A stretch of DNA of 63,309 bases, the filler included, from Candidatus Rokuibacteriota bacterium (lineage in GTDB: Bacteria > JAUVQV01 > DATDCY01), in the NCBI GenBank assembly GCA_031406795.1. It is 5 parts of 5 records of this genome, joined end to end, with 100 filler letters (N's around TTAATTAATTAA, not from the genome) between each part and the next. Parts side by side here need not be neighbours in the genome. Positions count along the whole stretch, not along the records: positions 31,446 to 50,562 come from JANOHV010000100.1; 4 more parts are not named here. The stretch is one strand, 5' to 3'. The notes under the pieces are model-generated. The model had not been told where the DNA came from and did no database searches. It was given only the letters and a program-made list of their open reading frames with translations. Position 1 is the stretch's first letter. Each line of letters opens with the position of its first letter. The position numbers and the translations under genes were made by a program. Positions 32,925 to 50,499 of this stretch are shown piece by piece.

Positions 32925-33327
32925 GGCGATGTTCCTTTCCATTGGGTTGAATAGGTCACAGGAATTCCCTTTCGCGGCCTGACTGCCATCGTTTCGCCCA
33001 GAAGCCCTTTGGAGGGTGCTTTGGCTCATGATGGGGACGATTCTCCGGGCAAGGCTGATGGTTGTCAAGGCATTGGCCTCGAAGAGCAGGCCGACAGTCG
33101 CCTGAAGAACCACGACAGAGGAAACAGGTCCGCGAGAAGAAAAACGTCCTCCGGCGCCCCACGCCGAGAAGATCTCAGTCCTCGCAGGGGACGCGCTCGA
33201 AATCCACGGCCGCCGGCAGCAACCGGTGGCGGTCGCGCTCGGGGTGCGCGGGGTGCTGGTGTCCGTCCCCGCGCGGCGGGAAGCGGGGGCATGGGGTCGG
33301 CCCCCGCGGCGCAGATCCCGCTGGGAC

Positions 33328-33545
33328 AGCTGGGTGGGCATGATCGCGCTGCTCGGCATCGCCACCGAAACCGCCTCGATCATGATGGTCTACCTCGACC
33401 AGGGCTACGAGACCTGGCGCAAGGAGGGGCGCATCCACTCGGTGGCCGATCTCATCGACATGGCCGTGGAGTCCGCCACCCTGAGGGTGCGGCCGCTCGT
33501 CATGACCGTGGGCATGAACATCGTGGGCCTCATTCCGGTGCTGGT
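33328..33545 (+). pseudogene. CusA/CzcA RND permease C-terminal remnant
   Basis: WVGMIALLGIATET.IMMVYLD..RVRPLVMTV..GLIPVL with no flanking CusA sequence. Confidence 0.75.
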
Positions 33546-33636
33546 CCGCGGCATTTCCCACCTTGACTTCGGTCTCCGGCAGCATGAACATTCTTCTAGC
33601 CAAGAAAAGTCTTCCGGACTCAAGGGGAGGTAGCGT

Positions 33637-35022
33637 ATGGACGCTGAGGGAATTGGTATTTCGAGGCGCGATTTCATCCGGATCGTCGGAACGGCGGCGG
33701 TGGCGAGCCAATTGCCGGTCACCGGGGCGCGCGGCCAGGAGGGTCGACCCGCCGACATCGAGCCGGGCGACCGGGTCTTCATCGCCAACGAGGACTCGAA
33801 CACGATCAGCGTAATCGACCCGGCGCGCAACGCGATCGAGACGACCATCAACCTGACGAGCTTCGACGAGGATCCGCGCCCGCCCTTCCGGCTCGTCACG
33901 GGCGGCGTCGCCCCGACGCACGCCGCGCTCATCCACAAGCCGCTCTACCACGGGTGCGTCGACGCGCATGGGGTCGTCCCCTCGCCGGACGGCCGGATGC
34001 TCGCCACCTCCGGACGCGGGTCGAGCAACGTCTACCTCATCGACACCGTCGCGCGGAAGGTCATCGGGAACACTCCGAATCCCTTCGCCTCGGCGACGAC
34101 GAACGCCGAGCGGATCTCCAGCGGCGTCCTCGTCGGTCGCGAGCCCCACGAGCCGACCTTCACCCGCAACGGCCGCGAACTCTGGGTCGCCGTCCGTGGC
34201 GAGGACCGCATAGCGATTTTCGACACGGCGCTGGCCGTTGCCGGGGCGGGTGGCGCTCCCGGCAGGGCGCTGCTGCGCACGCTGCCCACGGTGAACGGCC
34301 CCGCGCAGGTCTGGTTCGACCGGGCGGGGACACTCGCCTTCGTGGTGAGCCAGAAGGTGCCGCGCGTGCAGGTCTTTGCCGTCAACCCCGACGCGGAGGG
34401 ACACTCGCGCCCCGAGCCGGTCGCCACGATCGACGTCTCGGCTCAGGATGCACCGGGTTTCACACCCTTCGAGAAGAGTTCCCCTGATGGCTCCGAGATC
34501 TGGTTCTCGCACAAGCTCGCGGACGCCGTCTCGGCCCGCTCCACCGCAGCGCCGTTCGGGCTCCTCGACACGATCGCCCTCGGGGAGAAGGCCCGGCCGA
34601 ACCATCTGGAGTTCGTCGAGAACGCGCGGGGTCGCGTGGTCTATGTGAGCTTAGCGCGGGTGGACGACGACGGGCCGGGCGGGGTCGCCGCGAGTCGAAT
34701 CGCCGTCATCGACCGGTCCGCCGCACCCGGGGCGCGCCGGGTCGTCGGCACGTTCTTCTCGGGCGGCCGCGAGGCGCACGGTCTCTGGACCAACCCCGCG
34801 AACACGCTCCTCTACGTGGCGCACGAGCAGGACGAGCTGCCCGGCACGCCGAACGCCGGCCAGACCGTCGCGAGCGCCTTCGACGTCTCGGACCCGTTCG
34901 CGCCGCGCTTCATCGCCCAGATCCCGCTCGGCAACCTCCTGCTGCCCTCGGGCGAACTACGCAACAAGAAGAGCATCAACCTCGTATACGTGCGCCCCGG
35001 CTACCGGGGCCAGACGGCATGA
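33637..35022 (+). CDS. Tat-exported YVTN/YncE-like beta-propeller protein
   Basis: SRRDFI Tat motif; VFIANEDSNTISVID; His-containing blades. Confidence 0.8.
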   Translation: MDAEGIGISRRDFIRIVGTAAVASQLPVTGARGQEGRPADIEPGDRVFIANEDSNTISVIDPARNAIETTINLTSFDEDPRPPFRLVTGGVAPTHAALIHKPLYHGCVDAHGVVPSPDGRMLATSGRGSSNVYLIDTVARKVIGNTPNPFASATTNAERISSGVLVGREPHEPTFTRNGRELWVAVRGEDRIAIFDTALAVAGAGGAPGRALLRTLPTVNGPAQVWFDRAGTLAFVVSQKVPRVQVFAVNPDAEGHSRPEPVATIDVSAQDAPGFTPFEKSSPDGSEIWFSHKLADAVSARSTAAPFGLLDTIALGEKARPNHLEFVENARGRVVYVSLARVDDDGPGGVAASRIAVIDRSAAPGARRVVGTFFSGGREAHGLWTNPANTLLYVAHEQDELPGTPNAGQTVASAFDVSDPFAPRFIAQIPLGNLLLPSGELRNKKSINLVYVRPGYRGQTA

Positions 35023-35032
35023 GGTCCGGGCC

Positions 35033-35374
35033 ATGAACGACCGGATCGCGCCCGACCGTTTCGCCGTGGAGATGGGGGCGGGCATGGAGCGCATGATGCG
35101 CGCGATGCACGCCAGCGCCCCGACCGGCGACCCTGACGCAGATTTCCTCGCGATGATGATCCCCCACCACGAGGGGGCGGTCGAGATGGCGCGGCTCGAG
35201 CTCGTCCACGGCCGCGACCCGCTCGTGCGGCAGCTTGCCGAGGGGATCATCGCGAGCCAGCGGACCGAGATCGAAGCGATGCGGGCACGGCTCGAGATCC
35301 TGCGGCACCGGGGCGCCGCCGCAGAACCGGAGTTCCCCGCCCTCGGCGGGACGCGCGGGCCAGCGGCGCGATGA
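35033..35374 (+). CDS. DUF305 / CopM-like metal-binding protein
   Basis: DADFLAMMIPHHEGAVEMA..IIASQRTEI. Confidence 0.88.
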   Translation: MNDRIAPDRFAVEMGAGMERMMRAMHASAPTGDPDADFLAMMIPHHEGAVEMARLELVHGRDPLVRQLAEGIIASQRTEIEAMRARLEILRHRGAAAEPEFPALGGTRGPAAR

Positions 35375-35392
35375 AGAGAAAACCGGGATTTC

Positions 35393-36421
35393 TTAGCTTC
35401 CCGCGGCAAGGAACGCCGCGTCCCTGACGGGCCAGACCCGGAAGTGCCGACCGCTCTTCTGGCCCACCCCGATCGCCCCTTTCGCCATGTAGAGCGCCCA
35501 GGCCCAGTCCGGCTCGAAGACACTCGTTGTCGATGACCAGTACCCCTCGCCGACACCGCGGAACGGGTGCAGTACCGGCAGCGCGGGGGAGTGCCGGTCG
35601 CAGTCAACAAGAGATTCAAGCTCGTTGATGTTCGGCAAGCGCCAGCCCTCCCGCGACCCCGTGGTGTGGTTGAGGGTCCGGACCGCTTCGAGCCCTTCCT
35701 CCCACGTCACCGGCCCGGCGCAGAGATCGGCCTCGCTCTTCCAGCAAAGTCCGGTCAGGAGATCGAGAATCCCTTCCTCCGCGGTGCGAAATCGGGGATC
35801 GGGCCAGGGACGGCCCATGCGGAACTCGCCGTCCTGTCCGGTCCCCCTGCAGGGCGCTTCCGCGCCGGCCTCGTCAAAGCAGCGCCGCTGTCCGGTCCGC
35901 AGGCAGACTTCGGTCTCGCCGCATACCGGCCAGAGCAGGGCGAAGCGCTGCTTCTCGCCGTAGAACATCCTTGCGCCCGCAAGGTGCACATACCAGGCGA
36001 ACGCCGGATTGATTGCCGCCGAGGTCGAGGTCCAGTACCAACCCTGGAAGAGGTTTCGGAAAGGATGGCCCGCCGGAAGAGCCGGACGCGCCTCCTGGTG
36101 ACTGAGCAGGCTGCGCAACTCGCGCCGGTTCGGCACTCGCCAATCGCGGTGGCCGAAAGCGCTCTTGCGGTTCATCGCAGCTATCGCCTCGAACGCCTCG
36201 TTCCAGCCGATGGGGAACTCCATCGGATTGGCGTCGATCATCCAGATCAAGCCAGTCAGGCGGTCCGTCGCGACTCCCCCAGCGACGGAAAAGCGCGGTT
36301 CGGGCCAGGGACGGCCTTTCGTGTGCTCCGCGTCTTGGGAACTCCCGGTGCACTGAATTACGCGTCCGTCAACGCCGTAACAGCGAAACTGACCGGTTCG
36401 GAGCAGGCGTTCGTCAGTCAT
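35393..36421 (-). CDS. DUF1566 (Lcl C-terminal) tandem-domain protein, copy 1
   Basis: TGQ..C, D.LTGL.W, WRVPNRRELRSL and WRLPNINELESL, YWSSTT. Confidence 0.88.
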   Translation of the reverse strand: MTDERLLRTGQFRCYGVDGRVIQCTGSSQDAEHTKGRPWPEPRFSVAGGVATDRLTGLIWMIDANPMEFPIGWNEAFEAIAAMNRKSAFGHRDWRVPNRRELRSLLSHQEARPALPAGHPFRNLFQGWYWTSTSAAINPAFAWYVHLAGARMFYGEKQRFALLWPVCGETEVCLRTGQRRCFDEAGAEAPCRGTGQDGEFRMGRPWPDPRFRTAEEGILDLLTGLCWKSEADLCAGPVTWEEGLEAVRTLNHTTGSREGWRLPNINELESLVDCDRHSPALPVLHPFRGVGEGYWSSTTSVFEPDWAWALYMAKGAIGVGQKSGRHFRVWPVRDAAFLAAGS

Positions 36422-36431
36422 CTGGCTGACT

Positions 36432-37601
36432 TCAGTTCAGTGGAATCGTCTCCCGGTAGATTGGATACGCGATCGGCTCGCTGTTCTCGTAACCTATTCG
36501 CTTGCGCCTTTTCTCGTCTAGCAGGTGATACGTGACCGTAACTTCGAGTCTCACGGGCGGGTTTTTGCCCTGCCGGCTGAACTCGAAGGAAAACACCCTC
36601 GTCTTCCCCTTGGGCAAACGGGTGTCCCTCAGGTCGACGATGAAAGGTCTCCACATGATGTACCGTTTCATAAGGAATGTCTCGTGCTTGATGGTATTTC
36701 CACCCCGGTCGAGCAGCCTCAGATCGAGGCTGAGATGACGATCCGGCGTGCCAGTTGGGAGATAGTGGGCAGCCCCGGCATTCGTCAGGCTGATGATATA
36801 TTTCACCCTGGCGCCGCCGAGTTCTTCAGTCTTGTAACCGACCTCGAGCGCGCTCTTCACCATTTCCGGAACGTGGCCGCCCTGGAAGAGATGTCTTCTC
36901 CCTCTCCGCACCACACCCCCACTTGCGATGGGACGACTGACCGGCGGCATGTGACAACCGATGCAATCCGGCCTCTGGCCGCTTTCGCTGATCTCGGCCA
37001 CGGTGCCGCAGGGAGGAACCCGATAAAAGACATCCCATCGTCTGTTCGTGGCGATGTGACACCGCGCGCAGGGACCGATTCCTGAAACCATGTCCGGGTC
37101 AACCGCCACGGGATGAGGTGCCTCGGCGGACGCGAAAGGTCCCACGATTTTCCCATCCCTCACATGACAGACCGCGCAGGTGACCCCCTCCTCCCGCAGA
37201 GTCGGGTCATAGGCTGGGTTGGGCTTGAGGAGCGGCTTGAATTTCTCGCGATCCTGGAAACCGAGAACGAGGTTCTCCTGCTGGTTCTCCAGTGGTGTAT
37301 GACAATTCAGGCAGATCTGCTGCGAACCATCGAACTGGAAATCCACCTGGAAGTAGGGATCCCGCCACGCGCGGGCGTGCATGCTCTCCGCCCATTCCCG
37401 GTAGATATCCTCATGGCATTCACGGCATTCGCCGGCGCTGACCGTCTTCAGCCCCTCAGGTATGACAACGGCCATCGGTCTTTCAAACCTGTCATCGACC
37501 ACGAAGATATTGAGCGGTCTGACTATGCGCCAAAGGAAGAAGGTTGAAAACAGAACGAGAACAGCGATCCAGAGTACCCGCTTCCGTTTTCTACCACCCA
37601 T
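36432..37601 (-). CDS. membrane-anchored multiheme cytochrome c (c554-like, 5 CxxCH)
   Basis: CRECH, CLNCH, CAVCH, CARCH, CIGCH; N-terminal TM. Confidence 0.9.
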   Translation of the reverse strand: MGGRKRKRVLWIAVLVLFSTFFLWRIVRPLNIFVVDDRFERPMAVVIPEGLKTVSAGECRECHEDIYREWAESMHARAWRDPYFQVDFQFDGSQQICLNCHTPLENQQENLVLGFQDREKFKPLLKPNPAYDPTLREEGVTCAVCHVRDGKIVGPFASAEAPHPVAVDPDMVSGIGPCARCHIATNRRWDVFYRVPPCGTVAEISESGQRPDCIGCHMPPVSRPIASGGVVRRGRRHLFQGGHVPEMVKSALEVGYKTEELGGARVKYIISLTNAGAAHYLPTGTPDRHLSLDLRLLDRGGNTIKHETFLMKRYIMWRPFIVDLRDTRLPKGKTRVFSFEFSRQGKNPPVRLEVTVTYHLLDEKRRKRIGYENSEPIAYPIYRETIPLN

Positions 37602-37604
37602 GGC

Positions 37605-39113
37605 TCAGGTCTTCAGAATTCCAAGCTCCACGATGATGACGGTGGCGATCTGCACAAGCCAGAAGAGGAACAGCCCGAAACCGAGGCGCGTTCCGGCAAT
37701 GTTCCACCCAACCTTCAAGAACCGCACCGCCAGGATCTTGCCGGCATAGAGAGCAAAGCCGATCAGGCCGTTGACGGGATGCAGCAGGAACCATCCCAGA
37801 TTCGAGAGCTTGCCCAGGTTGTCGAGCGGCGTGTGGATGAAGACGCAAAGAAGAGCATCGAAGCAGAAGACGGCGAAACTCACCCATGCTGCGTGGCGGT
37901 GCACGCTGATCATCGTCTGGACTTCCGCGAAAGGACGGATCCAACCCTTGGCGGCGGCCGCCGAGAGAAATGCTAGCAGGGCGAACAGCCCCCCGCCGAT
38001 CGCCAAAATCAACTGCAGACGCATGATCTTCACGTTTGTTGTCGCCCGCAGGCGATGGACCACCGATCCGTACGCTTCGGCCCACTGTCGACTTCTGAAA
38101 ACGTCATGGCACGGCATACAGACGTAGTCCACCGTGAGGAAGCCGGGGTTGTAGCTTGCGCCACCTGTTGTCCGCTTCGGAATTTCCGCGTGAGGCCTGA
38201 TAACGAAGAGGTGACTCCGCACGTCACCGTGCAGGGAGTCGGGCCGCGATTTGGCGAGCAGTCCGGCCGGGGGCATGTGACAATCGATGGACCCGACGCG
38301 GGCATTCGCCATCAGACTTTCTTGATAGACTTTGGCGACCCCGGGATGGCAGGAAGCGCAAGTGCGCCGCTGGGATCCTTCCCCGCTACGGTGGGGATTG
38401 TGACAACCCGTGCAGCCAAGCCCCTTCATTTTGCTTTTCTCGAGCTGGTTCGCCTCGGTATAGGGCGCGAGGAAGTCACCGACGAGCGGGATCCCTTCCT
38501 TCGACTCCTGGCGGTGGCAGGAGGCACAGCCGTCGGGTCGGGTGACGTATGTCCTGGCGCAGGCTCGAACGTGCGTGCCGGGCACCGGGGCCGTGGCAGT
38601 GCTCGCACTGCACCCCGTCGAGTCGCCAGGTGCCGACGATCCCGGGGAGCCCGTCTTGGTGCCCCTCCGCGGCGTATCCCGTCGTATGGCACCGGCCGCA
38701 GTCGTAGGGGACTTTTTCCCCGGGCCGGAAGTCCACCCAGTGCCGGCCCTGGAGGTTGAACTGGTTCGCTCCGGGCCCGGATCCGCTCGACGTCACGAGA
38801 TAGCCCTGCCGGTCGAGGAAAAGGGCCTTCCAGCGGAAACCGCCGACGATGTAGGAGATATCGGCAGTCGTCAATCCCAGCGGAAGGGGGATGTCCCGCG
38901 CTTCGATGGCGCCGGGGCGATGCAGGATGCGCGCGTGGCCGGTTGTGACCAGTGCTCGAAGATCTCCCGGTGACAGGGTGCGCAGCCCGCGGCGCCAACA
39001 TAATCCGACGCCTTGTCGGAGGCCGCGGAAGCCGGTGCAGCGAGGGCGAGCAGGAGACACATTCCGGCCAGAATCCATCGCACCGGGCGAAATCCGCACG
39101 TTGTTCTGTCCAT
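37605..39113 (-). pseudogene. octaheme-like cytochrome c with C-terminal 4-TM domain, split by two frameshifts
   Basis: CAPCH / CGRCH, CEHCH / CASCH, CTGCH, CASCH, SIDCH, CMPCH in three ORF pieces; shifts near 38945 and 38547. Confidence 0.8.
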
Positions 39114-39175
39114 AGTATCTCACTCCTCGTCGGGCAGCAACACGGGCACGGGTAGGCGCCGGTTATCCGGCCTTG

Positions 39176-39394
39176 TTACTTCCGTTTCGTCATGACAACG
39201 ACTCCCAGAATCACCAAGACAACGATGACGATCAGAATCAACCCGCCGGAGTTCATCCCCCAACCCCAACCGCCGCCCATCATGCCACCACCCTGGCCAG
39301 AGCCCATGTTGCCGCCCTGGCCAGTGCCCATCTGGGCGGAGGCAGGAATCCCGGAAAAGAACAACACCGTCAGCAACAACATCAATCTTTTCAT
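39176..39394 (-). CDS. small Gly/Met-rich membrane protein
   Basis: GGAGG RBS; signal peptide, GGGMMGGGWGWGM, C-terminal TM. Confidence 0.7.
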   Translation of the reverse strand: MKRLMLLLTVLFFSGIPASAQMGTGQGGNMGSGQGGGMMGGGWGWGMNSGGLILIVIVVLVILGVVVMTKRK

Positions 39395-39469
39395 CTCGTG
39401 CCTCCATTTCAACAGCCGCGCCCTGTCCGACCCAGGGCTTCCCGTGCCCCTGCATGCAGGAGCCTTCGT

Positions 39470-40219
39470 CTACAACCAGCGAACGACCCCGAGGAATACC
39501 CCGAAGGCCGGTCCGCCGTCGTTCAAGCCGATGGTCATGCCTCCGGTGAGAGCGTAATCCTTGCTGAGGAGATGAAACGCCCCGAGACTCGCCTCGAGCG
39601 GGTCCTTGGCATTTGAAACAGTCGCTCCCCGGCCTTCCAGCGATACAAAGACGTTCGTCATGCCGAAGACTTTCGAGACGCCGATGCCGGCGAGCGGGAT
39701 GTCATCGTATGAGGTGCCGGAGGGATCGCCGGTGACGATATACCCCCCCGTCAAAGAGAACTTCAGACCCCTGAGACGCTGGTGGAAGCCGGCGAAGACT
39801 CCGTAATCCGTCTGGCCGGTGCCAAGACCATTCGCCTCATCGGCTGTTGGCAGTTTCACCGCCGCAGAGCCGCTGACGGAAAACCCGCCGCGGGACTCCG
39901 ACAGCAGGACCGCTCCGGCCCGCACAACGACATCCCCCAAACCGGTTTCCGTGGCGCTTGAGCCACCGGTCTTCTGCGTGAGGGAAAGCAGCGGCGTGGT
40001 AACGCTTGCGCTGTACCGCGGCGAGACGTACCCGAGAGTCGGCGAAAGGGAGATGAGGCTGGATGTCGTCGGGGTGCCGAAATCGCCGGTCTTGTATCCG
40101 GCGTCGAGCTCCAGATAGCCGCGGCCATCCAGAGCCCGAGCCGCACCAGGTGAGAGAATCCCAAAGAGCACGAAAACAACCGCAGAGACCGCCAGGACTC
40201 CTCTCGCCAGGGGAACCAT
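39470..40219 (-). CDS. putative outer-membrane beta-barrel protein
   Basis: Signal peptide; TGLGDV..VKLPTADE..GLGTG.TD motif. Confidence 0.7.
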   Translation of the reverse strand: MVPLARGVLAVSAVVFVLFGILSPGAARALDGRGYLELDAGYKTGDFGTPTTSSLISLSPTLGYVSPRYSASVTTPLLSLTQKTGGSSATETGLGDVVVRAGAVLLSESRGGFSVSGSAAVKLPTADEANGLGTGQTDYGVFAGFHQRLRGLKFSLTGGYIVTGDPSGTSYDDIPLAGIGVSKVFGMTNVFVSLEGRGATVSNAKDPLEASLGAFHLLSKDYALTGGMTIGLNDGGPAFGVFLGVVRWL

Positions 40220-40653
40220 TACTTCCCCTGCTTGCTCAGGTCGTCCATCATCTGGTTCAGATTCTTCATCCGCGCCTGCATCGCTTGCATCGCCGCGGAA
40301 TCCATCGTGCCCTTGGCCATGTGCTCCGACATCTGCTTCATCGTCACGGACATATCGGCCATCCCCCCGGACATCTTCTGCATCCGGTCCATGGCCATCT
40401 GCCCTTCCATGCCGCGAGACATTTTCTGCATGACCTGGTCCATCTGACTCATCATCCCCGTCATGTCCCGCATCATGTCCTGCTGCATCATCGTCTGTCC
40501 GCCCATCATCTGCGAGGACGGCTGGGAGCCCATCATGCCGCCGCCGGAAGGCTGCTGCCCGCCGCCCATGCCGCCGCTGGGCATCATCTGGGCCGTCGCC
40601 ACCAGGGCCGAGAAACCGATAATCGCCGCTGTTCCTGCAATGATTTTTTTCAT
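40219..40653 (-). CDS. Met-rich periplasmic protein
   Basis: Signal peptide; very high Met content, helical. Confidence 0.75.
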   Translation of the reverse strand: MKKIIAGTAAIIGFSALVATAQMMPSGGMGGGQQPSGGGMMGSQPSSQMMGGQTMMQQDMMRDMTGMMSQMDQVMQKMSRGMEGQMAMDRMQKMSGGMADMSVTMKQMSEHMAKGTMDSAAMQAMQARMKNLNQMMDDLSKQGK

Positions 40654-40740
40654 CTCGTTCTCCATTTTTGGGGTGTCGAACTCATCGCACTGTGCCCGGT
40701 CTTCCCGATCTTTCTACTTTATCCGGCCTCCTTTCTCTGG

Positions 40741-43008
40741 TCAAACCCGCGCCCGACGCAGCCGCAAGGCGTTGCCGATCACCGACACCGAGCTGAGGCT
40801 CATCGCCGCGGCGGCGATCATCGGACTCAGCAGCATGCCGGAGAAGGGATAGAGCACCCCGGCCGCGATCGGCACGCCCAGCACGTTGTAGATGAAAGCG
40901 AAAAAGAGATTCAGTCTGATGTTCGCCATAGTCGCCCGGCTCAGTCGTCGCGCCCGCACGATGCCGCGCAGGTCGCCTTTGACGAGGGTCACGCCGGCGC
41001 TTTCCATCGCCACGTCGGTTCCCGTGCCCATGGCGATGCCGACCTGTGCCTGCGCCAGGGCGGGCGCGTCGTTGATGCCGTCGCCGGCCATCGCGACGAC
41101 CTTGCCCGCCGCCTGCAGATTCTTCACCGCCTCGGCCTTCTGATCCGGGAGCACCTCGGCCAGCACTTCGTCGATGCCGAGCTTCTTCGCGACCGCCTCC
41201 GCCGTCACCCGGTTGTCGCCGGTCAGCATGACGATGCGTATCCCCTCGTCATGGAGTTGCCGGATCGCCTCCGGGGTGGTCTCCTTGATCGGGTCGGACA
41301 CCGCCAGCAGGCCGGCGACCTTGCCGTCAACGGCTACGAACATGACGGTTTGCCCCTCCGCCCGGAGTACTTCCGCCTGCTCGGCTAGCCCGCCGGGGGC
41401 GATCTGAAACTGTTCCAGGAGTTTGGCGTTGCCCAGAAGCACCGTGCGCCCGTCGACCATGCCGGCGACGCCCTTGCCGGTGTGGGAGACGAATTCGACG
41501 ACCTCGCCCGTACCCGCGCCGCGCTCGCTCGCTCCGGCGACGATGGCGCTGGCGAGGGGATGCTCGCTGCCCTTCTCGACGCTCGCCGCAAGCCGCAGGA
41601 GGGTCGCCTCGTCCATGCCTGCCGACGTCACGACCTGCGTCACCTTCGGTTTGCCCTCGGTGAGGGTGCCCGTCTTGTCCACCACCAGGGTGTCGACCTT
41701 GCGCAGCGTCTCGATGGCCTCGGCGTTCCTGAAGAGCACCCCCAGCGTCGCGCCCTTGCCCGTTGCGACCATGATCGACATCGGCGTGGCGAGTCCCAGG
41801 GCGCAGGGGCAGGCGATGATCAGCACCGAGACCGCGGTGATCGAGGCGTAGGCCAGTCGCGGCTCGGGTCCCACGAAATACCAGACGAGAAAGGAGAGAG
41901 CGGCGATCGCAATCACGATCGGCACGAAATACCCCGAGACGACGTCGGCCAGCCTCTGGATGGGTGCGCGGCTGCGCTGGGCTGCTGCCACCATCTGGAC
42001 GATCCGCGCCAGCAGGGTCTCGGCGCCGACCTTTTCCGCTTTCATGACGAGGGTGCCGTTGGCGTTTACCGTGGCGCCGACCACTTTGTCGCCGGCGTGT
42101 TTCTCTACCGGGATCGGTTCGCCGGAAATCATGGACTCATCGATGCTGCTGGCCCCCTCGAGCACCTCGCCGTCCACGGGCACCTTCTCCCCGGGCCGGA
42201 TCCGGAGCCGGTCGCCGACCTGCACGTGCTCGAGCGGGATGTCGGCCTCCTCGCCATTGTCGGAGAGTTTCCTCGCGGTCTTGGGCGCGAGCCCGAGCAG
42301 GGCCTTGATCGCGGCGCCTGTTCTGCTGCGCGCCCGCAGTTCCAGGACCTGGCCGAGCAAGATCAGCGTGACGATCACCGCCGCCGCCTCGAAATAACCG
42401 GGCACCAGGCCCGTGTGGGTACGCATGGCAACCGGGTACAGACCCGGCGCGAGGAGTGCCACCAGACTGTAGAGATAGGCGACGGAAACGCCGAGCGCGA
42501 TCAGCGTGAACATGTTGAGGCTGCGATTGGCGACCGACTGGACACCCCTGGCGAAGAACGGCCACCCTGCCCACACAACGACCGGCGTCGCCAGAATAAA
42601 CTCCAGCCAGCCGAGGATCCCGCCGCCCACGACGGACTCGAGGGAGCGACCGCCGGGAATCATGCCGCGCATTGCGATCGCGACGAGAGGGACCGTGAGC
42701 ACGGCACCGACGATGAAGCGCCGGCGCATGTCGCGATACTCCGCGTCTTCCTCAATCCCCTCCGCCGTTGCGCCCCGGGGTTCCAATGCCATCCCGCACT
42801 TCGGGCAGATCCCCGGCGCGGGCTGCACCACTTCCGGGTGCATCGGACAGACGTACTCCGTCCGCTGGGGGGTGGCCGGAGCCGGTTCTTTCGGCTCGAG
42901 GGCCATCCCGCACTTCGGACAGATGCCCGGCCCGTCCTGAACGACCTCCGGGTGCATGGGGCAGGTGAACTGCCGAGGAGCTATCGTCGTTCGCCGCTCG
43001 CTCGTCAT
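40741..43008 (-). CDS. copA: P1B copper-translocating ATPase with two HMBD repeats
   Basis: 2x [40 protein letters not shown] and MSLSS. Confidence 0.93.
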
Positions 43009-43026
43009 CGAGAGACCGCCATCGCC

Positions 43027-43239
43027 CTAGTGATGCTGCTCATGCTCGGAGTTTGGCTGTGGCGCGGCGCCGGCCGGCGGTGCTGCCGCTGCCGACGGTG
43101 CGCTCTCGCTCATCCCCTGCCGGGCCTCGGGCGGGGACGGCGCGTCGCTGCCACTCATTCCCGTGCCCATCATTTGCGCCGACGCAACGCCGGGCGCCGC
43201 CAAGAGGACAACAACTGCTGCGAGCACATACCGTTTCAT
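43027..43239 (-). CDS. small exported protein with His-rich tail
   Basis: Signal peptide, QMMG, C-terminal SEHEQHH. Confidence 0.65.
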   Translation of the reverse strand: MKRYVLAAVVVLLAAPGVASAQMMGTGMSGSDAPSPPEARQGMSESAPSAAAAPPAGAAPQPNSEHEQHH

Positions 43240-43286
43240 CTCTATCCCCCTTGTTGTCAGGGAAGACGGCACCCTACGTCTCTAAG

Positions 43287-43301
43287 GCATCAACTGTGCC
43301 A
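43287..43301 (-). promoter_or_regulatory. sigma54 -24/-12 promoter
   Basis: TGGCACAGTTGATGC on minus strand about 50 nt before the first gene of the copA run. Confidence 0.7.
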
Positions 43302-43331
43302 TTGCCTGATCCGGATGAGGCGCGCACTACA

Positions 43332-43344
43332 CAACTGCTTGATA
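43332..43344 (-). promoter_or_regulatory. IHF binding site
   Basis: TATCAAGCAGTTG matches WATCAAnnnnTTR just upstream of the sigma54 site. Confidence 0.65.
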
Positions 43345-43609
43345 AGCTTTGCAATATTCAGTGCGGCCACAGGGAAAACCAGGGGGAAGCTCGGGCTCCA
43401 CAGTCACATTTTGAGACGCTTGATCGGGTCCACCGCGTTTCAGAATTTCCGAATCGGGGCCGGAATTCACAAGAAATTATTGGCATTCTTTCTGGGCGGC
43501 GTCGTCGAACCCGGGAATAGTTGTCTCGTAATTGAATTTCGGCTCATTTGACACAACTGCACTCGCTGCAACCCCGGTCGCACAATGCCTCACGTCAGCG
43601 AACGCCCGA

Positions 43610-44668
43610 CTACGACGCGAGATCGTCGGGATCTCGCGCAGGCAACGACGCCGCATCCTTGACCGGCCAGACGCGGAAGTACCTGCCCCCCTTTTGACCC
43701 ACCCCGATCGCCCCTTTCGCCAGGTAGAGCGCCCAGGCCCAGTCCGGTTCGAAGACGCTCGTCGTCGACGACCAGTATTCCTCGTCGACACTGCGGAACG
43801 GGTGCGGCGCCGGCAGGGCGGGAGAGTGGCGGGCGCAGTCCACCAGGGATTCAAGTTCGTTGATGTTCGGTAGTCGCCAACCTTCGGACGTTCCAGCGTT
43901 GCGGTTGAGGGTCCTGACCGCCTCAAGCGCCTCCGCCCAAATGACCGGCCCGCCGCAGAGGTCGGCATCACGCCTCCAGCAAAGCCCGGTCAGCAAATCG
44001 ATGACCCCGTCCTCCGAAGTGCGGAATCTGGGATCGGGCCAGGGGCGCCCCAGGCGCAGTTCGCCGTCTTGTCCGGTCCTCTGGCAGGGCACCTCCGCAC
44101 CCGACTCGTCGAAGCAGTGCTCTTGTCCGGTCCGCAAGACGACTTCCGTCTGGCCGCAAACCGGCCAGAGCAGGGCGAAGCGCTGCTTGTGCCCGTAGAA
44201 CATCCGTGCTCCCGCGAGGTGCACATACCAGGCGAATGCCGGACTGATCGCCGCCGTGGTCGAGGTCCAATACCAACCCTGGAAAAGGTTGCGGAAGGGA
44301 TGCCCCGCCGGAAGGGCCGGACGCGACTCCTGGTGACTGAGCAAGCTGCGCAACTCGCGCCGGTTCGGCACTCGCCAGTCGCGGCGGCCGAAAGCGGCAT
44401 CCCGGTTCATCGCGGCTGTCGTCTCGAACGCTTCGTGCCAGCCGACGGGATACTGTGCCGGATTGGCATCTCCAGACCAGGTTAGGCCGGTCAGGCAGTC
44501 CGTCACGACCTCCCCGTCCACGACAAAGCGGGGTTCGGGCCAGGGCCGGCCGATCAGAAGCTCAGCGTCCTGAGCGCTGCCGGGGCAGGAAATCTCCCGC
44601 CCGCCCGGGCTGTAACAGCGGAGCTGCCCCGTGCGGAGCAGGCACTGAGGGTCCTGGGATACCTTCAC
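43610..44668 (-). CDS. DUF1566 tandem-domain protein, copy 2
   Basis: Same motifs as copy 1; GTG overlaps the regulator stop codon. Confidence 0.88.
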   Translation of the reverse strand: MKVSQDPQCLLRTGQLRCYSPGGREISCPGSAQDAELLIGRPWPEPRFVVDGEVVTDCLTGLTWSGDANPAQYPVGWHEAFETTAAMNRDAAFGRRDWRVPNRRELRSLLSHQESRPALPAGHPFRNLFQGWYWTSTTAAISPAFAWYVHLAGARMFYGHKQRFALLWPVCGQTEVVLRTGQEHCFDESGAEVPCQRTGQDGELRLGRPWPDPRFRTSEDGVIDLLTGLCWRRDADLCGGPVIWAEALEAVRTLNRNAGTSEGWRLPNINELESLVDCARHSPALPAPHPFRSVDEEYWSSTTSVFEPDWAWALYLAKGAIGVGQKGGRYFRVWPVKDAASLPARDPDDLAS

Positions 44669-46056
44669 GACTGAACTGTTTCGGGTGGCTTTCGCGGCAG
44701 CGAGAATTTCTCCATCCGATAAAGAAGCAGGTGTCGGGGTACCTTGAGCAGCTGCGCGGCGCGGCTCTGGTTCCAGCCACTCCTGCGCAGCGCTTCCAGG
44801 ACGATAGCCTTCTCGGCCTCCTCCAGCGACAACCCCTCCTCGGGAAACGTGAACGAGAAACCCGAAGTGTCCTGTCCGGTCCCGGATGGGCGCGGGGCGC
44901 GGATCTTCTCCGGCAGGTCTTCGAGGCGGATGACGTCGGCATCGCCGAGCACGAGCAGGCGCTCGACGTTGTTCTCGAGCTCGCGCACGTTGCCCTTCCA
45001 GGGGTGGCGCTTGAGGGCGTCCATCGCCTCTCGGCTCACCGTGACCTTCCGGTCCCCGCCGAGCGTCCGCAGGAAATGCGCGACAAGCAGCGGTATGTCC
45101 TCGGGGCGCTCTCGCAGGCTCGGCAGGTGGATCGGCACCACGGCCAGCCGATAGAAGAGGTCCTCGCGGAACCGCCCCTCGGCGACGTCGCCCTCGAGGT
45201 CGCGGTTGGTGGCGGCGATCACCCGGGCCTCGAAGCGCAGTGCGCCGTTGCCGCCCACCGGCGTGAACTCCCGCTCCTGCAGCGCGCGCAGCAGTTTTGC
45301 CTGCAGCTCGACGGGCAGGTCCGCGATCTCGTCGAGCAACAGGGTGCCGCTCCCGGCCTCTTCGAAGCGCCCCATCTTGTCGCGCACGGCGCCGGTGAAG
45401 GCGCCTTTTTTGTGGCCGAACAGCTCGCTCTCGAGAAGCTCGCGCGGAATCGCGGCGCAGTTGACGGCCACGAACGGCTTGTCGGCCCGCAGGCTCCGGT
45501 AGTGAATGGCCTTGGCGACGAGTTCCTTGCCGGTGCCGCTCTCCCCGGTGATCAGCACCGAGGCGTCGGAGTCGGCCACTTTCTCGATCACCCTGAACAC
45601 CTGCTGCAGCAGCGGCGAGTCGCCGACGATGTTCCCGAGACCGTACTTCTTCTCGACCTCGCGCCGCAGACGCGCGTTGTCGTGCTCCAGGCTCTTGAGC
45701 CGCAGCGCCTTGCGGACGGCGAGCGAGAGTTCGTCGCGGTTGAACGGCTTGGCGACGTACTCGAAGGCGCCGGCTTTCATCGCCTCGACGGCCATCGCGA
45801 TCGTGCCGAAGGCGGTGATGACGATGACCTGGGTCTCGGGGGAGGCCTGTCGCACGCGCCGCAGCAGGTCCATGCCGTCCATCCCCGGCATCTTGATGTC
45901 GGTGATCAGCAGGTCGACGCGCTCGGCGCCCAGCAGCGCGAGCGCCTTCTCGCCGGAGTCCGCGGTGAGGACGGCGTAGCCCTCCTTGGCGAGGTTGTAC
46001 TCCAGCACCCGTCGCAGGCTCGCGTCGTCGTCGACAACCAGGATTCGTTCAGTCAT
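44665..46056 (-). CDS. sigma54-dependent response regulator (NtrC/ZraR-like)
   Basis: REC, GESGTGKE, GAFTGA, WKGNVREL, Fis HTH. Confidence 0.95.
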   Translation of the reverse strand: MTERILVVDDDASLRRVLEYNLAKEGYAVLTADSGEKALALLGAERVDLLITDIKMPGMDGMDLLRRVRQASPETQVIVITAFGTIAMAVEAMKAGAFEYVAKPFNRDELSLAVRKALRLKSLEHDNARLRREVEKKYGLGNIVGDSPLLQQVFRVIEKVADSDASVLITGESGTGKELVAKAIHYRSLRADKPFVAVNCAAIPRELLESELFGHKKGAFTGAVRDKMGRFEEAGSGTLLLDEIADLPVELQAKLLRALQEREFTPVGGNGALRFEARVIAATNRDLEGDVAEGRFREDLFYRLAVVPIHLPSLRERPEDIPLLVAHFLRTLGGDRKVTVSREAMDALKRHPWKGNVRELENNVERLLVLGDADVIRLEDLPEKIRAPRPSGTGQDTSGFSFTFPEEGLSLEEAEKAIVLEALRRSGWNQSRAAQLLKVPRHLLLYRMEKFSLPRKPPETVQS

Positions 46057-47245
46057 GCGGCCTCACCTCCGTGTCCGCGCCGGCCGCCGGGAGCGAGAGC
46101 GTGAACCGCGCGCCGCCGCCCGGCCGGTTTTCCGCCCTGAGGGCGCCCCCGTGAGCCTCCGCGATGCGCAGGCTGATGGCGAGCCCGAGCCCGGTCCCCT
46201 CGGGCCTCGTGGTGTAGAAGGGCAGGAAGACCTTCGCCAGGTCCGTCTCGGGGATGCCCGGTCCCTCGTCGTCGACGACGACCTCGACCAGGCGTCCTTC
46301 AACGTCGCGGTACTCGAGGCCCTTGACCAACCCGACACGCACGGCGCCGCTCACGCTGATCCCGCCCCCGGGCTCAGTCGCCTGCGCCGCGTTCAGCAGC
46401 AGGTTCAGCAGGACCTGCTTGAGCTGCACCGGATTCCCCCGGACGGGCAGCGGCGCGCCGATCGCCGTGGTCAGCCGCACGCCCCGCCGCGCAGTCTGGA
46501 CGCCGACCAGCGCGGCCGTCTGCCGGGCCAGTTCCCCGAGGTCGAAATACGCCGTCGCCCCTTCCGCCGCCTTCGACCGCGCCAGGCCGAGGTACTCCTC
46601 GACGACCTTGTTCAGCCGGTCGGTCTCCTTGAGCAGGATCTCGAAGAACTCCGCTTTCGGGGAGTTCGCCGGGAAATCCTCCTTAAGTATTTCGACGGTC
46701 CCCCTGATCGACGAAAGCGGGTTGCGGATCTCGTGCGTGATCGTCGCGGCGAGTTCGCCCACGGCGGCGAGCCGGTCGGCGCGGCGCATCTGGCCCTCGA
46801 TCTCCAGGATCATGTCGGCCTGGCGCCGCAGTTCCTGGTAGGAGTCCTCAAGTTGCCCCGCGATCTGCTCGCTCCGCAGACGGTACCGGCGTTCCCGGCC
46901 GGCGAAGTGGCCGATGAGCGTGGAGAACGCGAAGTACTGCGCGATCTCCATGAACTGGTTCGCGATTTCGCGACCCATGTGCTGCCAGTGCAGCAGGATG
47001 TGGGGGGCATAGAGCACCGCCACCGCCGCCGAGGCGACCACGCCGCCGCGCACCCCGAACCAGACGGCGGCCAACCCCACCGGGATGTAATAGAGTCGCC
47101 GGTAGAAATCGTGGAGCAGCGGGATCGAGGTGACGGTCGCGTAATGCAGTGCGGAAACCCCGAGCACGAGTAGGACGACGGTCACGATCTGGCGTCGCGC
47201 ATTCCCGGTGCCGCTGGCGGCAGGCAGGCTCTGCTCGAGCGTCAT
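46049..47245 (-). CDS. intramembrane-sensing histidine kinase
   Basis: 4 TM with several His (LHY, LHD, PHILLHW), THEIRNPL, GTGLGL. Confidence 0.9.
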   Translation of the reverse strand: MTLEQSLPAASGTGNARRQIVTVVLLVLGVSALHYATVTSIPLLHDFYRRLYYIPVGLAAVWFGVRGGVVASAAVAVLYAPHILLHWQHMGREIANQFMEIAQYFAFSTLIGHFAGRERRYRLRSEQIAGQLEDSYQELRRQADMILEIEGQMRRADRLAAVGELAATITHEIRNPLSSIRGTVEILKEDFPANSPKAEFFEILLKETDRLNKVVEEYLGLARSKAAEGATAYFDLGELARQTAALVGVQTARRGVRLTTAIGAPLPVRGNPVQLKQVLLNLLLNAAQATEPGGGISVSGAVRVGLVKGLEYRDVEGRLVEVVVDDEGPGIPETDLAKVFLPFYTTRPEGTGLGLAISLRIAEAHGGALRAENRPGGGARFTLSLPAAGADTEVRPHD

Positions 47246-47463
47246 CGCGTCACTATAGCCATCACCCGCCGCCTTGGATAGGGGGAGCCGGCGGCGCCGC
47301 GGGGTCTTTCACGCATTCGTCGCTTGACATGCCGGCCCGGTCATCCCAAGATTCCCCTGCGAGCACAATTATGGACCCAGGCCATGTCACGCCCCCGCTC
47401 TCGCGGCCGCCGCTCGTCCGACCCGAGCGCGCCATCGACCAGGCCGCCTGAGTTCACCCGCCG

Positions 47464-48954
47464 ATGCGCGACTCAGCCCTGCTCGAAGTGCTGCTGGTCA
47501 AGGCCGTCGAGGAGGCGGACCGCAGCGGCAGCCTGATCCCGTTCGGCGACCGGGAGCGCGCCGCGCGCGAAGCGCTGCGATCGGCCGGGCTCGGCTCCGG
47601 CGAGATCGCCGCCGGTCGCAATTCGCCCGCCTTTGAACAGGCGCTCGCCGCCCGCGCCGCGAGCCTCGCCGGACCGCTGCTCGAGCGCCACCCGGTGCTC
47701 CGGGCCGTGCTCCGGCGGTGCCGTCCCCCGGCGTGGGTGGGACTCGCCCTGTTCGCGGCCGTCTTCGCGACCGGGGCCGGGCTTTCGGCGCTCGACGGCT
47801 CGCGACGGATCAACATCCTGGCTCCGCCGGTCCTCGGCCTGATCCTTTGGAATCTCGCGGTGTACCTCCTGCTCGCGATCGGCGCACTCCGCAGCCTGGG
47901 CGCCGGCGCGAGCGGCCGGCCGCCGTTCACCCGATCCTTCGTGAAAGCGATCGGGCGACGGCTCGCCCCGCTGCTCGCCAAGACCGCCGACGTCGACACG
48001 CTGCTCGGCGACGCCGTCCGTCGGTTCGCCGCAGACTGGTGCGGGGCGGCGGCGCCGCTGCTCGGCCAGCACCTGAGGCGCTGGTTCCACATCGGGGCCG
48101 CAGCGCTCAGCGCCGGGCTCATCTGCGGGCTCTATCTGCGTGGACTCGTCCTGCGCTACGAAGCCGGGTGGGAGAGCACGTTTCTCGAGCCGGCGCAGGT
48201 CAAGAGGCTGGTCGACCTGCTGTTCGGACGCATCGCCGCCTGGGCCGGCATCCAGCTGCCGCAGACAATCGAGGAGGTGGCGAAGTTGCGCTGGGACGCG
48301 GGGGGCGGCGGCGGTGCGGCCGCCTCATGGATTCACCTGATCGCTTTGCTGCTGACGGCCATCGTCCTGGTCCCCCGGCTCACCCTCGCGTCGATCGCCT
48401 GGCTCTCCGGCCGACGACTCCGCGGGTCCGGCCATCTTCCCGGCGACATTGTCGCGTACGCCCGACTCGCCTTCGGCGCGGGGCAGCAGGTGCCGGTTGC
48501 CGTCAGCGTCACGCCGTACGCCTTCGAGCCGCCTCCCGGCACCGTGGAGCAGCTCGCCGTGCTCCTGCGGCCGACCCACGGGCGCGGCGTTCAGCCGGAG
48601 CTGCGGGCGCCGATCGCCTACGGCGACGAACGTTCCATCCCGTCGGCTTTCGACGCCGACGCGCATCGCGTCGGCGGGCGGGTGCTGCTGATGAATCTGT
48701 CGTCGACGCCGGAGACCGAGAACCACGGCGCCGCGATCGTCGCCGCGCGCGACCACACCCGGCGGGTCCGGCCTGAACAACGGCTGCTCGTCGTCCTCGA
48801 CGAGTCGGCGTACGCTTTGCGTTTTGCCCAGGCGGCCGCACCCGCCGGGCGCATCGAGGAACGTCGCCGCCTGTGGCGCGCGTTCGTCGACGGGTACGGC
48901 GTCGAGGTCGCATTCACGCACGAGTCGGGCGCGCCGCCCGAGCCGGGAGCGTGA
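47464..48954 (+). CDS. DUF2868-like membrane protein
   Basis: RINIL, Y.AGWESTFL, VPRL, TPE.ENHG; paired with DUF3482 GTPase. Confidence 0.7.
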   Translation: MRDSALLEVLLVKAVEEADRSGSLIPFGDRERAAREALRSAGLGSGEIAAGRNSPAFEQALAARAASLAGPLLERHPVLRAVLRRCRPPAWVGLALFAAVFATGAGLSALDGSRRINILAPPVLGLILWNLAVYLLLAIGALRSLGAGASGRPPFTRSFVKAIGRRLAPLLAKTADVDTLLGDAVRRFAADWCGAAAPLLGQHLRRWFHIGAAALSAGLICGLYLRGLVLRYEAGWESTFLEPAQVKRLVDLLFGRIAAWAGIQLPQTIEEVAKLRWDAGGGGGAAASWIHLIALLLTAIVLVPRLTLASIAWLSGRRLRGSGHLPGDIVAYARLAFGAGQQVPVAVSVTPYAFEPPPGTVEQLAVLLRPTHGRGVQPELRAPIAYGDERSIPSAFDADAHRVGGRVLLMNLSSTPETENHGAAIVAARDHTRRVRPEQRLLVVLDESAYALRFAQAAAPAGRIEERRRLWRAFVDGYGVEVAFTHESGAPPEPGA

Positions 48955-50394: not shown

Positions 50395-50499
50395 GAGCCG
50401 AGGCGCGGAGGCGCTCGAACGCGACGCACTCGACATCACGACTGCGACGTTTTTGTGAACATGCTGCCCGAGTCACGCGGGAGCGTCAGGACGCGTCTT

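Follow-up and report, generated by a model that had tools for sequence, protein, structure and literature searches.

The gene run at positions 35393-47245 of the DNA analyzed here raises the question of what a CopA copper pump, two multiheme c-type cytochromes and two DUF1566 proteins do together behind a sigma-54-dependent two-component system (TCS). The DNA, hereafter the window, is a stretch of 63,309 bases from a metagenome-assembled genome (MAG) of Candidatus Rokuibacteriota. A sequence-only reading had taken the run for an undescribed, oxygen-independent copper system. Comparison with related loci points to a different answer. The complete set is best read, from synteny, as a lineage-specific mosaic, not a fixed system. 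The associations that recur are those of the octaheme cytochrome (CytTM) with CopA or Met-rich genes and of CytTM with genes of the pentaheme cytochrome (Cyt5) type; judged by the same loci, the ties of the DUF1566 genes and of the sigma-54 pair to them are loose. We therefore favor, as rather probable, a mosaic copper-stress island of the CorSR/curA type, in which the cytochrome pair would be an accessory electron-transfer module, most likely reductive, and would not oxidize Cu(I).

The gene run

All twelve elements listed by the sequence-only reading were recovered in their places on the minus strand of contig C143 by the listing of open reading frames (ORFs), Pfam and NCBIfam. From the highest coordinates to the lowest, with the promoter region given on two lines, they are as follows.

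46049-47245, minus: sensor histidine kinase (HisKA 61.2 bits, HATPase_c 85.4 bits)
44665-46056, minus: NtrC-type sigma-54-dependent response regulator (Response_reg 118.4, Sigma54_activat 239.6, AAA_lid_14 86, HTH_8 40.9 bits)
43610-44668, minus: Lcl1, a double Lcl_C/DUF1566 protein (PF07603, 194.7 bits in two stretches, cut-off 34.9)
43332-43344, minus: match to an integration host factor (IHF)-like consensus, TATCAAGCAGTTG, by sequence reading, about 38 bp upstream of the -24 element
43287-43301, minus: sigma-54 type -24/-12 promoter TGGCACAGTTGATGC (TGGCAC-N5-ATGC, by sequence reading)
43027-43239, minus: secreted Met/His protein of 70 aa (signal peptide, QMMGTGMSG..., C-terminal EHEQHH)
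40741-43008, minus: CopA, a P1B-1-type Cu(I)/Ag(I) ATPase (E1-E2_ATPase, PF00122, 189.2 bits; Hydrolase, PF00702, 132.9 bits; HMBD 93.1 bits)
40219-40665, minus: periplasmic Met-rich protein (23.6% Met, signal peptide)
39470-40219, minus: candidate outer-membrane beta-barrel, Phenol_MetA_deg (PF13557, 29.4 bits, cut-off 22, E 1e-6)
39176-39394, minus: Gly/Met-rich peptide (25% Gly, 11% Met; signal peptide, C-terminal transmembrane helix 50-68)
37605-39113, minus: CytTM, an octaheme c-type cytochrome with a four-helix membrane domain, a pseudogene by comparison with relatives
36432-37601, minus: Cyt5, a membrane-anchored pentaheme cytochrome (five CXXCH, C-terminal beta-sandwich; c552 (5ZE8)/MccSep superfamily)
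35393-36421, minus: Lcl2, a double Lcl_C/DUF1566 protein and the last gene of the run (PF07603, 197 bits, cut-off 34.9)

The octaheme cytochrome and its association with copper loci

Outside the window, CytTM genes were found at four loci from two other phyla, and the context is of the copper type in 4/4. The gene contents are as follows.

L171: genes for Met-rich and His/Met-rich proteins and a YHS-type P1B-ATPase (CopA), convergent with a Cyt5 remnant, DUF1622 and CytTM
L172: multicopper oxidase (MCO), CopB/PcoB, small membrane protein, CytTM, dehydrogenase and CopA, all on one strand; a kinase nearby
L173: CopA, with CytTM as the next gene
L174: Metal_resist protein, distant Cyt5-like pentaheme protein, DUF1622, CytTM and a G/M-rich peptide

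A P1B-ATPase lies within 3 kb in three of the four, to be set against some 1-2% for a random gene, a figure that is a rough gene-density estimate and was not computed. CytTM has a Cyt5-type neighbor in the window, in L171 (the remnant there matches residues 318-388, 66% identity) and in L174. Together with the CopA-like genes found near Cyt5 in 10/80 genome loci, the copper contexts of CytTM bear out a link between CopA and multiheme cytochromes beyond local chance. CytTM itself is rare (1/401 sampled Desulfobacterota genomes and 3/401 in the phylum of G424). It had no match in the plasmid search, and its absence from all 14 genomes in the phylum of G007 and from all five Cyt5-carrying genomes concerns too few genomes to mean much.

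The pentaheme-type and octaheme genes are separated by a gene for a small DUF1622 membrane protein at L171 (4726-5094, minus) and L174 (8572-8904, plus). This gene is missing from the window, where the two cytochrome genes lie 3 nt apart.

Relatives of CytTM, of which the protein collection has about 220, are about 500 aa long, with a signal peptide, eight CXXCH motifs and four C-terminal helices; the closest intact one, P0121 (502 aa, 8 CXXCH), is 93% identical. An octaheme-like cytochrome gene with a membrane domain is thus present, as had been read from the sequence, but it carries two frameshifts and a Cys-to-Ser change in heme motif 7 and is a pseudogene. The frame is lost after EHWSQ (a missing base at about 38942) and restored at about 38548 (an extra base), so that a stretch of about 130 codons, which includes hemes 2 and 3, is read out of frame and broken by stop codons; motif 7 reads SIDCH for CIDCH, its first Cys being invariant in 37/37 relatives. 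Both indels recur in a contig assembled from another sample of the same study, which spans 38415-39625 without gaps, so the lesions cannot be put down to a single faulty assembly. Two other studies yielded contigs of about 95% identity that have the missing base, lack the extra one and are in frame at both sites. Pieces of the rest of the cluster come from these two outside runs as well, including one contig that bridges Lcl2, Cyt5 and the start of CytTM. The cluster exists with an in-frame octaheme gene in close relatives, and this gene is a pseudogene in the population sampled here.

The membrane helices of CytTM carry two invariant residues, His405 and His445, and AlphaFold2 (AF2) gives the membrane part as a confident four-helix bundle. 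This domain belongs to no Pfam family (DUF6529 appears at E 0.1 only), has no Foldseek match at E <= 0.001 and no usable match in the ESM Atlas; VIA-align returned only generic four-helix bundles at Z <= 12.6, under the tool's noise level for helical bundles. For the heme domain the top Foldseek match is OcwA (E 2e-3), and the NCBIfam models of NrfH and CctA match CytTM weakly.

These loci bear on the proposal that had been read from the sequence, a dedicated and conserved oxygen-independent copper system in which the cytochromes oxidize CopA-exported Cu(I) in place of MCOs and pass the electrons to the membrane, with DUF1566 and the sigma-54 TCS as integral parts. Several features are in its favor: a single sigma-54 promoter stands before closely spaced genes of one orientation, contig C143 encodes no MCO, CytTM is linked to CopA in 3/4 outside loci, its membrane domain, with invariant His, could reach the quinone pool, and the open-access papers and preprints searched describe no anaerobic cuprous oxidase of this type. 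However, the gene set is not conserved; an MCO with CopB/PcoB stands beside CytTM in L172 and near Cyt5 in L034, and an MCO stands beside CopA and Lcl in L164, which shows the cytochromes to be companions of MCOs and not their substitutes. The claimed lack of an MCO holds for the window, where a Pfam and genome profile search found no Cu-oxidase domain on C143 or the other contigs, but not for the genome, which has Cu-oxidase_3 matches on contigs C48, C24 and C103. The bis-His multiheme cytochromes of this superfamily are low-potential, and electron transfer from Met-stabilized Cu(I) to such hemes would run uphill. In this population, moreover, the membrane-linked CytTM is a pseudogene. Because of the expected low potential, the co-occurrence with MCOs and the genomic Cu-oxidase genes, Cu(I) oxidation by the cytochromes is rated low, and a dedicated system of this kind appears quite improbable.

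The pentaheme cytochrome and its neighbors

Cyt5 has 389 aa, with CXXCH motifs at 59, 97, 142, 178 and 213 and an additional Cys198 that is invariant in 28/28 sequences. The AF2 model is confident in an N-terminal membrane helix (3-27) and in a beta-sandwich at 245-389, where the predicted local distance difference test score (pLDDT) of the block reaches 93. By fold and by profile, the top match in the Protein Data Bank (PDB) is the penta-heme cytochrome c552 of Thermochromatium tepidum (5ZE8). The Foldseek alignment has E 1.6e-11 over 421 columns, with a TM-score of only 0.37 for a low-confidence model, and hmmsearch gives E 1.9e-16 in two stretches that cover both domains. In this alignment Cys198 (PPCGT) falls on a Cys of c552, and HYLPTGTPDRH falls on HAMPTGAPFRN. 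On this basis Cyt5 probably has a His/Cys-ligated heme; the CytTM/Cyt5 module would, we infer, also hold a b-type heme. The c552 protein is reported to have a low potential. Cyt5 is not a member of the MccSep/ExtKL family (NF040886, 39.1 bits versus a cut-off of 250, over residues 45-78 only).

The protein database holds 1514 relatives of Cyt5, many at >=60% identity, from Nitrospirota, Desulfobacterota, Gallionellaceae and others. Judged by these carriers, Cyt5 is a component widespread in anaerobes and microaerophiles; the plasmid search yielded only distant Leptospira plasmid matches (26-27%). Neighbors were counted at 101 loci (L001-L095 and L165-L170). The most frequent are VTT/DedA-rhodanese proteins (20), MerA-like flavoproteins or oxidoreductases (19), ArsR-rhodanese proteins (15), MerR (11), ArsM-like methyltransferases (10; the label is our own) and DsrE (8), followed by MerB (6), DUF3641 radical-SAM proteins (6), MerT (5), CopA with HMA (4) and the Phenol_MetA_deg barrel (4). 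In the same-genus genome G002, the neighbors of Cyt5 are TauE and a DsbD-thioredoxin protein. These neighborhoods suggest for the Cyt5 family a general, apparently undescribed role with thiophilic metals, metalloids or sulfur.

Conservation of the gene set

With Cyt5 as an anchor, 80 genome and 15 true metagenome loci were compared, with flanks of at most 10 kb and some contigs much shorter. The ten genome loci with a CopA-like gene within 10 kb include five in which this gene is of the window type, at 65-77% identity (L019, L025, L027, L034 and, as a fragment, L033). In L019, from a Desulfobulbaceae MAG, Cyt5 is followed by CopA, with kinases and fragments of Lcl and sigma-54 regulator genes farther on. 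The nearest Cyt5 of all (L081, 91%) lies on a contig of only 1.8 kb, which leaves hardly any flank. Of the 401 Desulfobacterota genomes in which Lcl1 was sought, 7 have Cyt5; besides G006, the six others are absent from the list of genomes with an Lcl1 match. The synteny comparison thus shows that CopA, the cytochromes, DUF1566 and the sigma-54 TCS are not conserved together, and the conserved system that had been proposed falls with it.

The most serious rival of the favored reading is that the cytochromes and DUF1566 proteins are unrelated passengers captured beside CopA in a recombination-prone island, Cyt5 having a sulfur/selenium or Hg/As chemistry of its own. Most Cyt5 loci lack CopA and contain mer, ars, rhodanese, DsrE, TauE and DsbD genes, and the gene order is different in every related locus. 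Remnants and pseudogenes are many (CytTM and a CusA-like remnant in the window, Cyt5 in L171, Lcl and regulator fragments in L019 and L164), and single genes of the island range in G+C from 0.56 to 0.69, the value for the whole genome being 0.671. Mere capture would leave unexplained, however, that all four outside CytTM loci are of the copper type, that three have a nearby P1B-ATPase, far above the level guessed for a random gene, and that CytTM recurs next to a Cyt5-type gene. The window cytochromes also lie inside an operon-like run, between the copper genes and Lcl2, with gaps of 3-62 nt. We regard the passenger explanation as unlikely, yet it stays a serious one because of the mosaicism and the many gene remnants.

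A number of observations weigh against the favored reading. When all window proteins were compared with the Cyt5 loci by tblastn, CytTM was found at 0/95 and Lcl at 2/95. No CopA-like gene was seen near Cyt5 in 70/80 genome loci, in 15/15 metagenome loci and in 6/6 extra Desulfobacterota loci, many of these loci being short. The two loci with the closest Cyt5 that has flanking DNA (L082 and L083, 77-78%) share no other gene with the window, and in G002 the orthologs of Cyt5 (76%) and CopA (78%) are on different contigs, with at least 4.5 kb of flank. The outside CytTM loci found are only four, and the neighbors of the Cyt5 family indicate Hg, As and sulfur as much as Cu. The broken CytTM gene of the window, together with the remnants of cytochrome or Lcl genes in L171, L019 and L164, fits decaying passengers as well as a module. 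Finally, the AF2 models of the heme domains are poor, with a mean pLDDT of 58.7 for Cyt5 and 56.6 for CytTM.

Regulation and operon structure

The kinase begins with about 130 hydrophobic, membrane-embedded residues that contain six His (hydrophobic segments 20-38 and 60-85), and it has no periplasmic loop domain. Its best partial NCBIfam matches, AtoS and ZraS, are both under the cut-off, as is a weak match of the N-terminal part to MASE1 (E 5.9e-4). Kinases beside L019 and L172 match it from the N-terminal membrane region onward (query residues 31-388 and 23-390). The regulator retains a receiver domain, the GAFTGA motif in the AAA+ domain and HTH_8. Its start overlaps the kinase stop by 8 nt, and the GTG start of Lcl1 in turn overlaps the regulator stop by 4 nt. 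An rpoN gene is present on contig C178 (Sigma54_DBD, E 1.1e-59).

Within the 370-nt gap that follows Lcl1, the promoter TGGCACAGTTGATGC precedes the first ATG of the operon by 48 nt. The proposed sigma-54 and IHF promoter was confirmed as a -24/-12 element with an IHF-like match, but not as a strict one: TGGCAC-N5-TTGC has 0 matches in the window, the promoter site having A for the first T. The pattern TGGCAC-N6-TGC occurs 48 times on both strands of the 4.1-Mb genome, with about 0.22 expected per 19 kb. A relaxed sigma-54 scan gave 11 other score-9 sites on the contig, hence the scan score alone is not specific. The element TATCAAGCAGTTG is a putative IHF site, a match to the consensus only. 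Upstream of the promoter there are no enhancer-type inverted or direct repeats, only two short palindromes.

From the Met/His peptide gene to Lcl2, every gap is at most 75 nt by ORF coordinates. Terminator-like sites show no excess (9 observed versus 7.3 +/- 2.9 in shuffles). These genes would form one co-transcribed, copper-induced operon. Taken together, the domains, the motifs, rpoN and the promoter element support the proposed CopA cassette under sigma-54/two-component control.

Copper genes and metal specificity

CopA has two HMBD metal-binding domains at its N-terminus, the HMBD match falling in two stretches. It contains CPC400, YNVLGVP707 and MSLSS736, in agreement with the P1B-1 metal-site motifs CPC, YN(x4)P and M(xx)SS, and the phosphorylation site DKTGT444. 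It passes the cut-off of TIGR01511 (610 bits versus 397) and does not reach that of PRK10671, the equivalog of Escherichia coli CopA (698.8 versus 1316 bits).

The small proteins around CopA are less easily classified. The 70-aa Met/His protein has no Pfam or NCBIfam family; related N-termini occur upstream of CopA in the same-genus genome G004. The Met-rich protein has no family either, in NCBIfam or in Pfam including matches at E <= 10, and no Metal_resist/ZraP match; Met-rich or Metal_resist proteins also occur in the related loci L171, L174 and L177. Kinship of the Met-rich protein with Metal_resist was considered and rejected, a BLASTP comparison with the Metal_resist protein of G004 showing likeness only in the signal peptide. 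The barrel gene, which overlaps the stop of the preceding Met-rich gene with its start, recurs as a Phenol_MetA_deg barrel in four pentaheme-cytochrome loci. Peptides similar to the Gly/Met-rich one, some with SHOCT domains, are found in L164, L174 and L177.

Further genes of copper type, or resembling it, lie beyond the low-coordinate end of the run on the same contig.

35033-35374, plus: short DUF305/CopM-type protein (DUF305 70.7 bits, profile positions 72-149 of 151)
33637-35022, plus: Tat-signal beta-propeller (YVTN repeat) protein (Lactonase/YVTN matches, RRDFIR motif)
33226-33633, plus: C-terminal remnant of a candidate CusA-type resistance-nodulation-division (RND) pump, by sequence reading
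32670-32924, minus: CopZ-like HMA metallochaperone (C-terminal CCCG; CopZ models at E 1e-12 to 1e-11, under their cut-offs)

The DUF305/CopM-type gene is convergent with the run and scores 89.8 bits for the CopM family, against a cut-off of 90. The RND-like remnant, directly before the propeller gene, consists of only the last ~80 residues with no upstream continuing frame, and it marks an old rearrangement in the island; we presume it to be of the CusA type from our own reading of the sequence.

The cassette might instead answer to another thiophilic metal (Ag, Hg, or Zn/Pb as for ZraSR) or to envelope stress, CopA being one of several effectors. Ag(I) is also a substrate of P1B-1 pumps, the models closest to the kinase and regulator are those of AtoSC/ZraSR/NtrBC (all under cut-off), mer and ars genes neighbor the Cyt5 family, and Metal_resist (ZraP/CpxP-type) proteins occur in related loci. 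Against this, CopA has the P1B-1 signature motifs; CopZ-like, DUF305/CopM-type and CusA-like remnant genes lie on the same contig; and an MCO with CopB/PcoB is found in related loci. Contig C143 has no mer or ars gene in the ORF listing, Pfam or NCBIfam. Another inducing stress thus has little probability for this run.

DUF1566 proteins

Lcl2 is 79% identical to Lcl1. Neither has a signal peptide or a hydrophobic segment, and both proteins are therefore cytoplasmic. An extracellular adhesin role, as for Legionella Lcl or Leptospira Lsa25, was considered and rejected, the proteins having no signal peptide and scoring 37.4 bits for the Lsa25 model, whose cut-off is 260. The Cys pairs C18/C28 and C185/C195 are invariant in 21 aligned family members. 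The Lcl1 orthologs of L145-L164 have about 350 aa and an invariant TGQxxC...C.G.GQD in each half.

Lcl1 has a match at E <= 1e-30 in 61/401 sampled Desulfobacterota genomes, about 31 of them full-length. Neighborhoods of about 10 kb on each side were compared for 20 of these ~31 full-length loci, and none is conserved: no neighbor family occurs in more than 4/20. In L164 a gene of the CopA type lies directly upstream of Lcl, together with an MCO and G/M-rich peptides, and one further locus of the 20 has a distant P-type ATPase within 3 kb. Lcl genes that stand beside CopA in Desulfobacterota MAGs are fragmented (L019, 17900-19250; L164, 9568-10543), and the sigma-54 regulator beside Lcl in L019 has lost most of its receiver domain. 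Decay of such accessory genes seems to be common.

Contigs and genome

The window is not one molecule; it joins five draft-assembly contigs with N spacers.

1-23986: contig C138
24087-28689: contig C141 (end only)
28790-31345: contig C142
31446-50562: contig C143, 19,117 bp, which carries the whole copper run
50663-63309: contig C144

Genes across these junctions are therefore not genomic neighbors, and the linked context of the copper run is 31446-50562 only. Each spacer (23987-24086, 28690-28789, 31346-31445 and 50563-50662) consists of two blocks of 44 N flanking 12 real bases. These bases read L-I-N in some frames and were taken as an artificial stop-codon linker.

The MAG has 4.1 Mb in 278 contigs, with 99.9% completeness, 3% contamination and 67.1% G+C, and its phylum is represented by only six species genomes in the searched collection. 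Genomes of the same genus hold orthologs of Cyt5 (76%) and CopA (78-82%) in a different arrangement. The island genes are therefore the lineage's own, and a binning error is unlikely.

At the high-coordinate end of C143, positions 47464-50394 (plus) hold a pair of ~490-aa genes with 73-74% G+C, compared with 56-69% in the island genes. The second gene has an N-terminal small-GTPase motif (TIGR00231, E 5.6e-5), and the pair may be the native flank of the island. At the other end (31446-32100, minus), the contig begins within a gene, followed by one for a 205-aa protein that has no family match. This first, partial gene presumably encodes a GspE-type type II secretion ATPase, a label given by eye.

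Proposed function and significance

The CopA family exports Cu(I), and NtrC-type regulators activate sigma-54 promoters. In the mosaic copper-stress island that we favor, a membrane-sensing histidine kinase, responding to metal within the membrane, would act through the NtrC-type regulator to activate the sigma-54 promoter. This promoter would drive the packed operon of the Met/His peptide, CopA, the Met-rich protein, the barrel, the Gly/Met peptide, the two cytochromes and DUF1566. CopA would move Cu(I) into the periplasm, where the Met-rich proteins may buffer it, with the barrel as a putative exit route. Through its four-helix domain with two invariant His, CytTM could take electrons from the quinol pool and pass them to Cyt5, which would then most likely reduce sulfur or selenium species or thiophilic metals at the His/Cys heme under metal stress. 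As the octaheme gene is inactive here, the module would be either crippled or dependent on another electron donor. Lineage-specific additions would account for the DUF1566 proteins and for the exact gene set.

A more specific proposal is that CytTM and Cyt5 constitute an undescribed quinol-fed periplasmic reductase module for thiophilic-metal stress (Cu here, Hg or As elsewhere), which could trap exported Cu(I), for example by making sulfide or persulfide, or by reducing the metal at the His/Cys heme. This we put forward as possible but tentative.

Since the classical cuprous oxidase CueO needs oxygen, there is only an incomplete picture of how anaerobes handle Cu(I) that has reached the periplasm. 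A cytochrome pair that acts as an electron conduit under metal stress would provide a respiratory-chain-linked, oxygen-independent arm of defense against copper, and perhaps against mercury and arsenic as well. A very large family of unannotated "multiheme c-type cytochromes", which, we presume, are easily mistaken for genes of extracellular electron transfer or of the nitrogen cycle, would then have a function. Were the cytochromes passengers, the run would be just another mosaic copper island. Several carriers are apparently cultured (Desulfobacterota bacterium M19, the source of L034, Sedimenticola selenatireducens DSM 17993 and Ferrigenium sp. UT4), which makes the idea testable.

Comparison with known systems

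None of the open-access papers and preprints searched, supplements excluded, ties multiheme cytochromes to copper-resistance operons. For DUF1566 with copper, the open-access literature gave only a row of a transcriptome table in Vibrio, and for multiheme cytochromes with a mer operon, nothing relevant.

The run resembles the Cue, Cus and Pco systems in its CopA-type export of Cu(I), its Met-rich proteins for binding Cu(I) in the periplasm, its outer-membrane component and the CopZ-like chaperone gene close by. It differs in that C143 has no CueR, no MCO and, in place of CusCBA, only the CusA-like remnant, and in the sigma-54 TCS as the means of regulation. In E. coli ZraPSR, an NtrC-type sigma-54 regulator and a kinase govern a metal-binding protein of the periplasm. 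The best partial NCBIfam matches of the window pair include ZraS and ZraR, but the scores are far under the cut-offs (185.8 versus 479 and 383.8 versus 760, respectively). Moreover, ZraPSR has no pump and no cytochromes, and the Met-rich protein of the window does not match Metal_resist/ZraP.

The quinol-dehydrogenase cytochromes CymA/NrfH, ImcH and CbcL, which combine a multiheme c domain with a membrane part, resemble CytTM in that such an architecture could feed periplasmic partners from this pool. In contrast to them, the four-helix domain of CytTM has no Pfam family and only generic bundle matches, and quinol oxidation by it is conjectural. Membrane-fed reduction in the periplasm may nevertheless have a precedent, since MsrPQ reportedly draws electrons from the membrane. 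If so, the MsrPQ-dependent repair of periplasmic proteins under copper stress in E. coli (PMC9302797) would be an analogous case.

The relationship of Cyt5 to characterized proteins is closer. According to a preprint (10.1101/2025.11.18.688581), MccSep/ExtKL of Geobacter sulfurreducens is a polysulfide and selenite reductase with five hemes and an Ig-like domain; heme 2 has His and Cys as ligands, a selenocysteine (Sec325) reaches in from the Ig-like domain, and the structure is compared there with 5ZE8. In MccSep and in c552, five CXXCH in an N-terminal helical domain and a C-terminal Ig-like beta-sandwich are shared with Cyt5; c552, the best match, also shares the Cys that aligns with the extra conserved one. 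Unlike Cyt5, which is anchored to the membrane at its N-terminus, MccSep is a soluble periplasmic tetramer.

By analogy of gene content, the closest described system to the window run is the curA operon of Myxococcus xanthus, copper-induced under the sigma-54 pair CorSR. According to PMC3707914, this operon encodes a His-rich cupredoxin, the MCO CuoA, CorS, CorR, a propeller lipoprotein, a DUF305 lipoprotein, CopA, a c-type cytochrome similar to cbb3 subunit III and a hypothetical protein. Copper induction was demonstrated for curA and is predicted for the window run. The gene list of that account includes the MCO CuoA, which has no counterpart on C143, and does not include DUF1566, a barrel or a Gly/Met peptide, all of which are found in the window, with two DUF1566 genes. 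The curA cytochrome is of class I and similar to cbb3 subunit III, in contrast to the octaheme membrane-domain and pentaheme pair of the window, and the DUF305 and propeller genes of the window, unlike those of curA, are on the strand opposite to the run. The classes in common are the sigma-54 kinase and regulator, CopA, a His-rich secreted protein, DUF305, a propeller and a c-type cytochrome, and C143 has all of them. The locus is thus apparently a variant of the sigma-54-controlled copper operon, to which it adds an apparently unreported association of two multiheme cytochrome families with islands for copper and other thiophilic metals.

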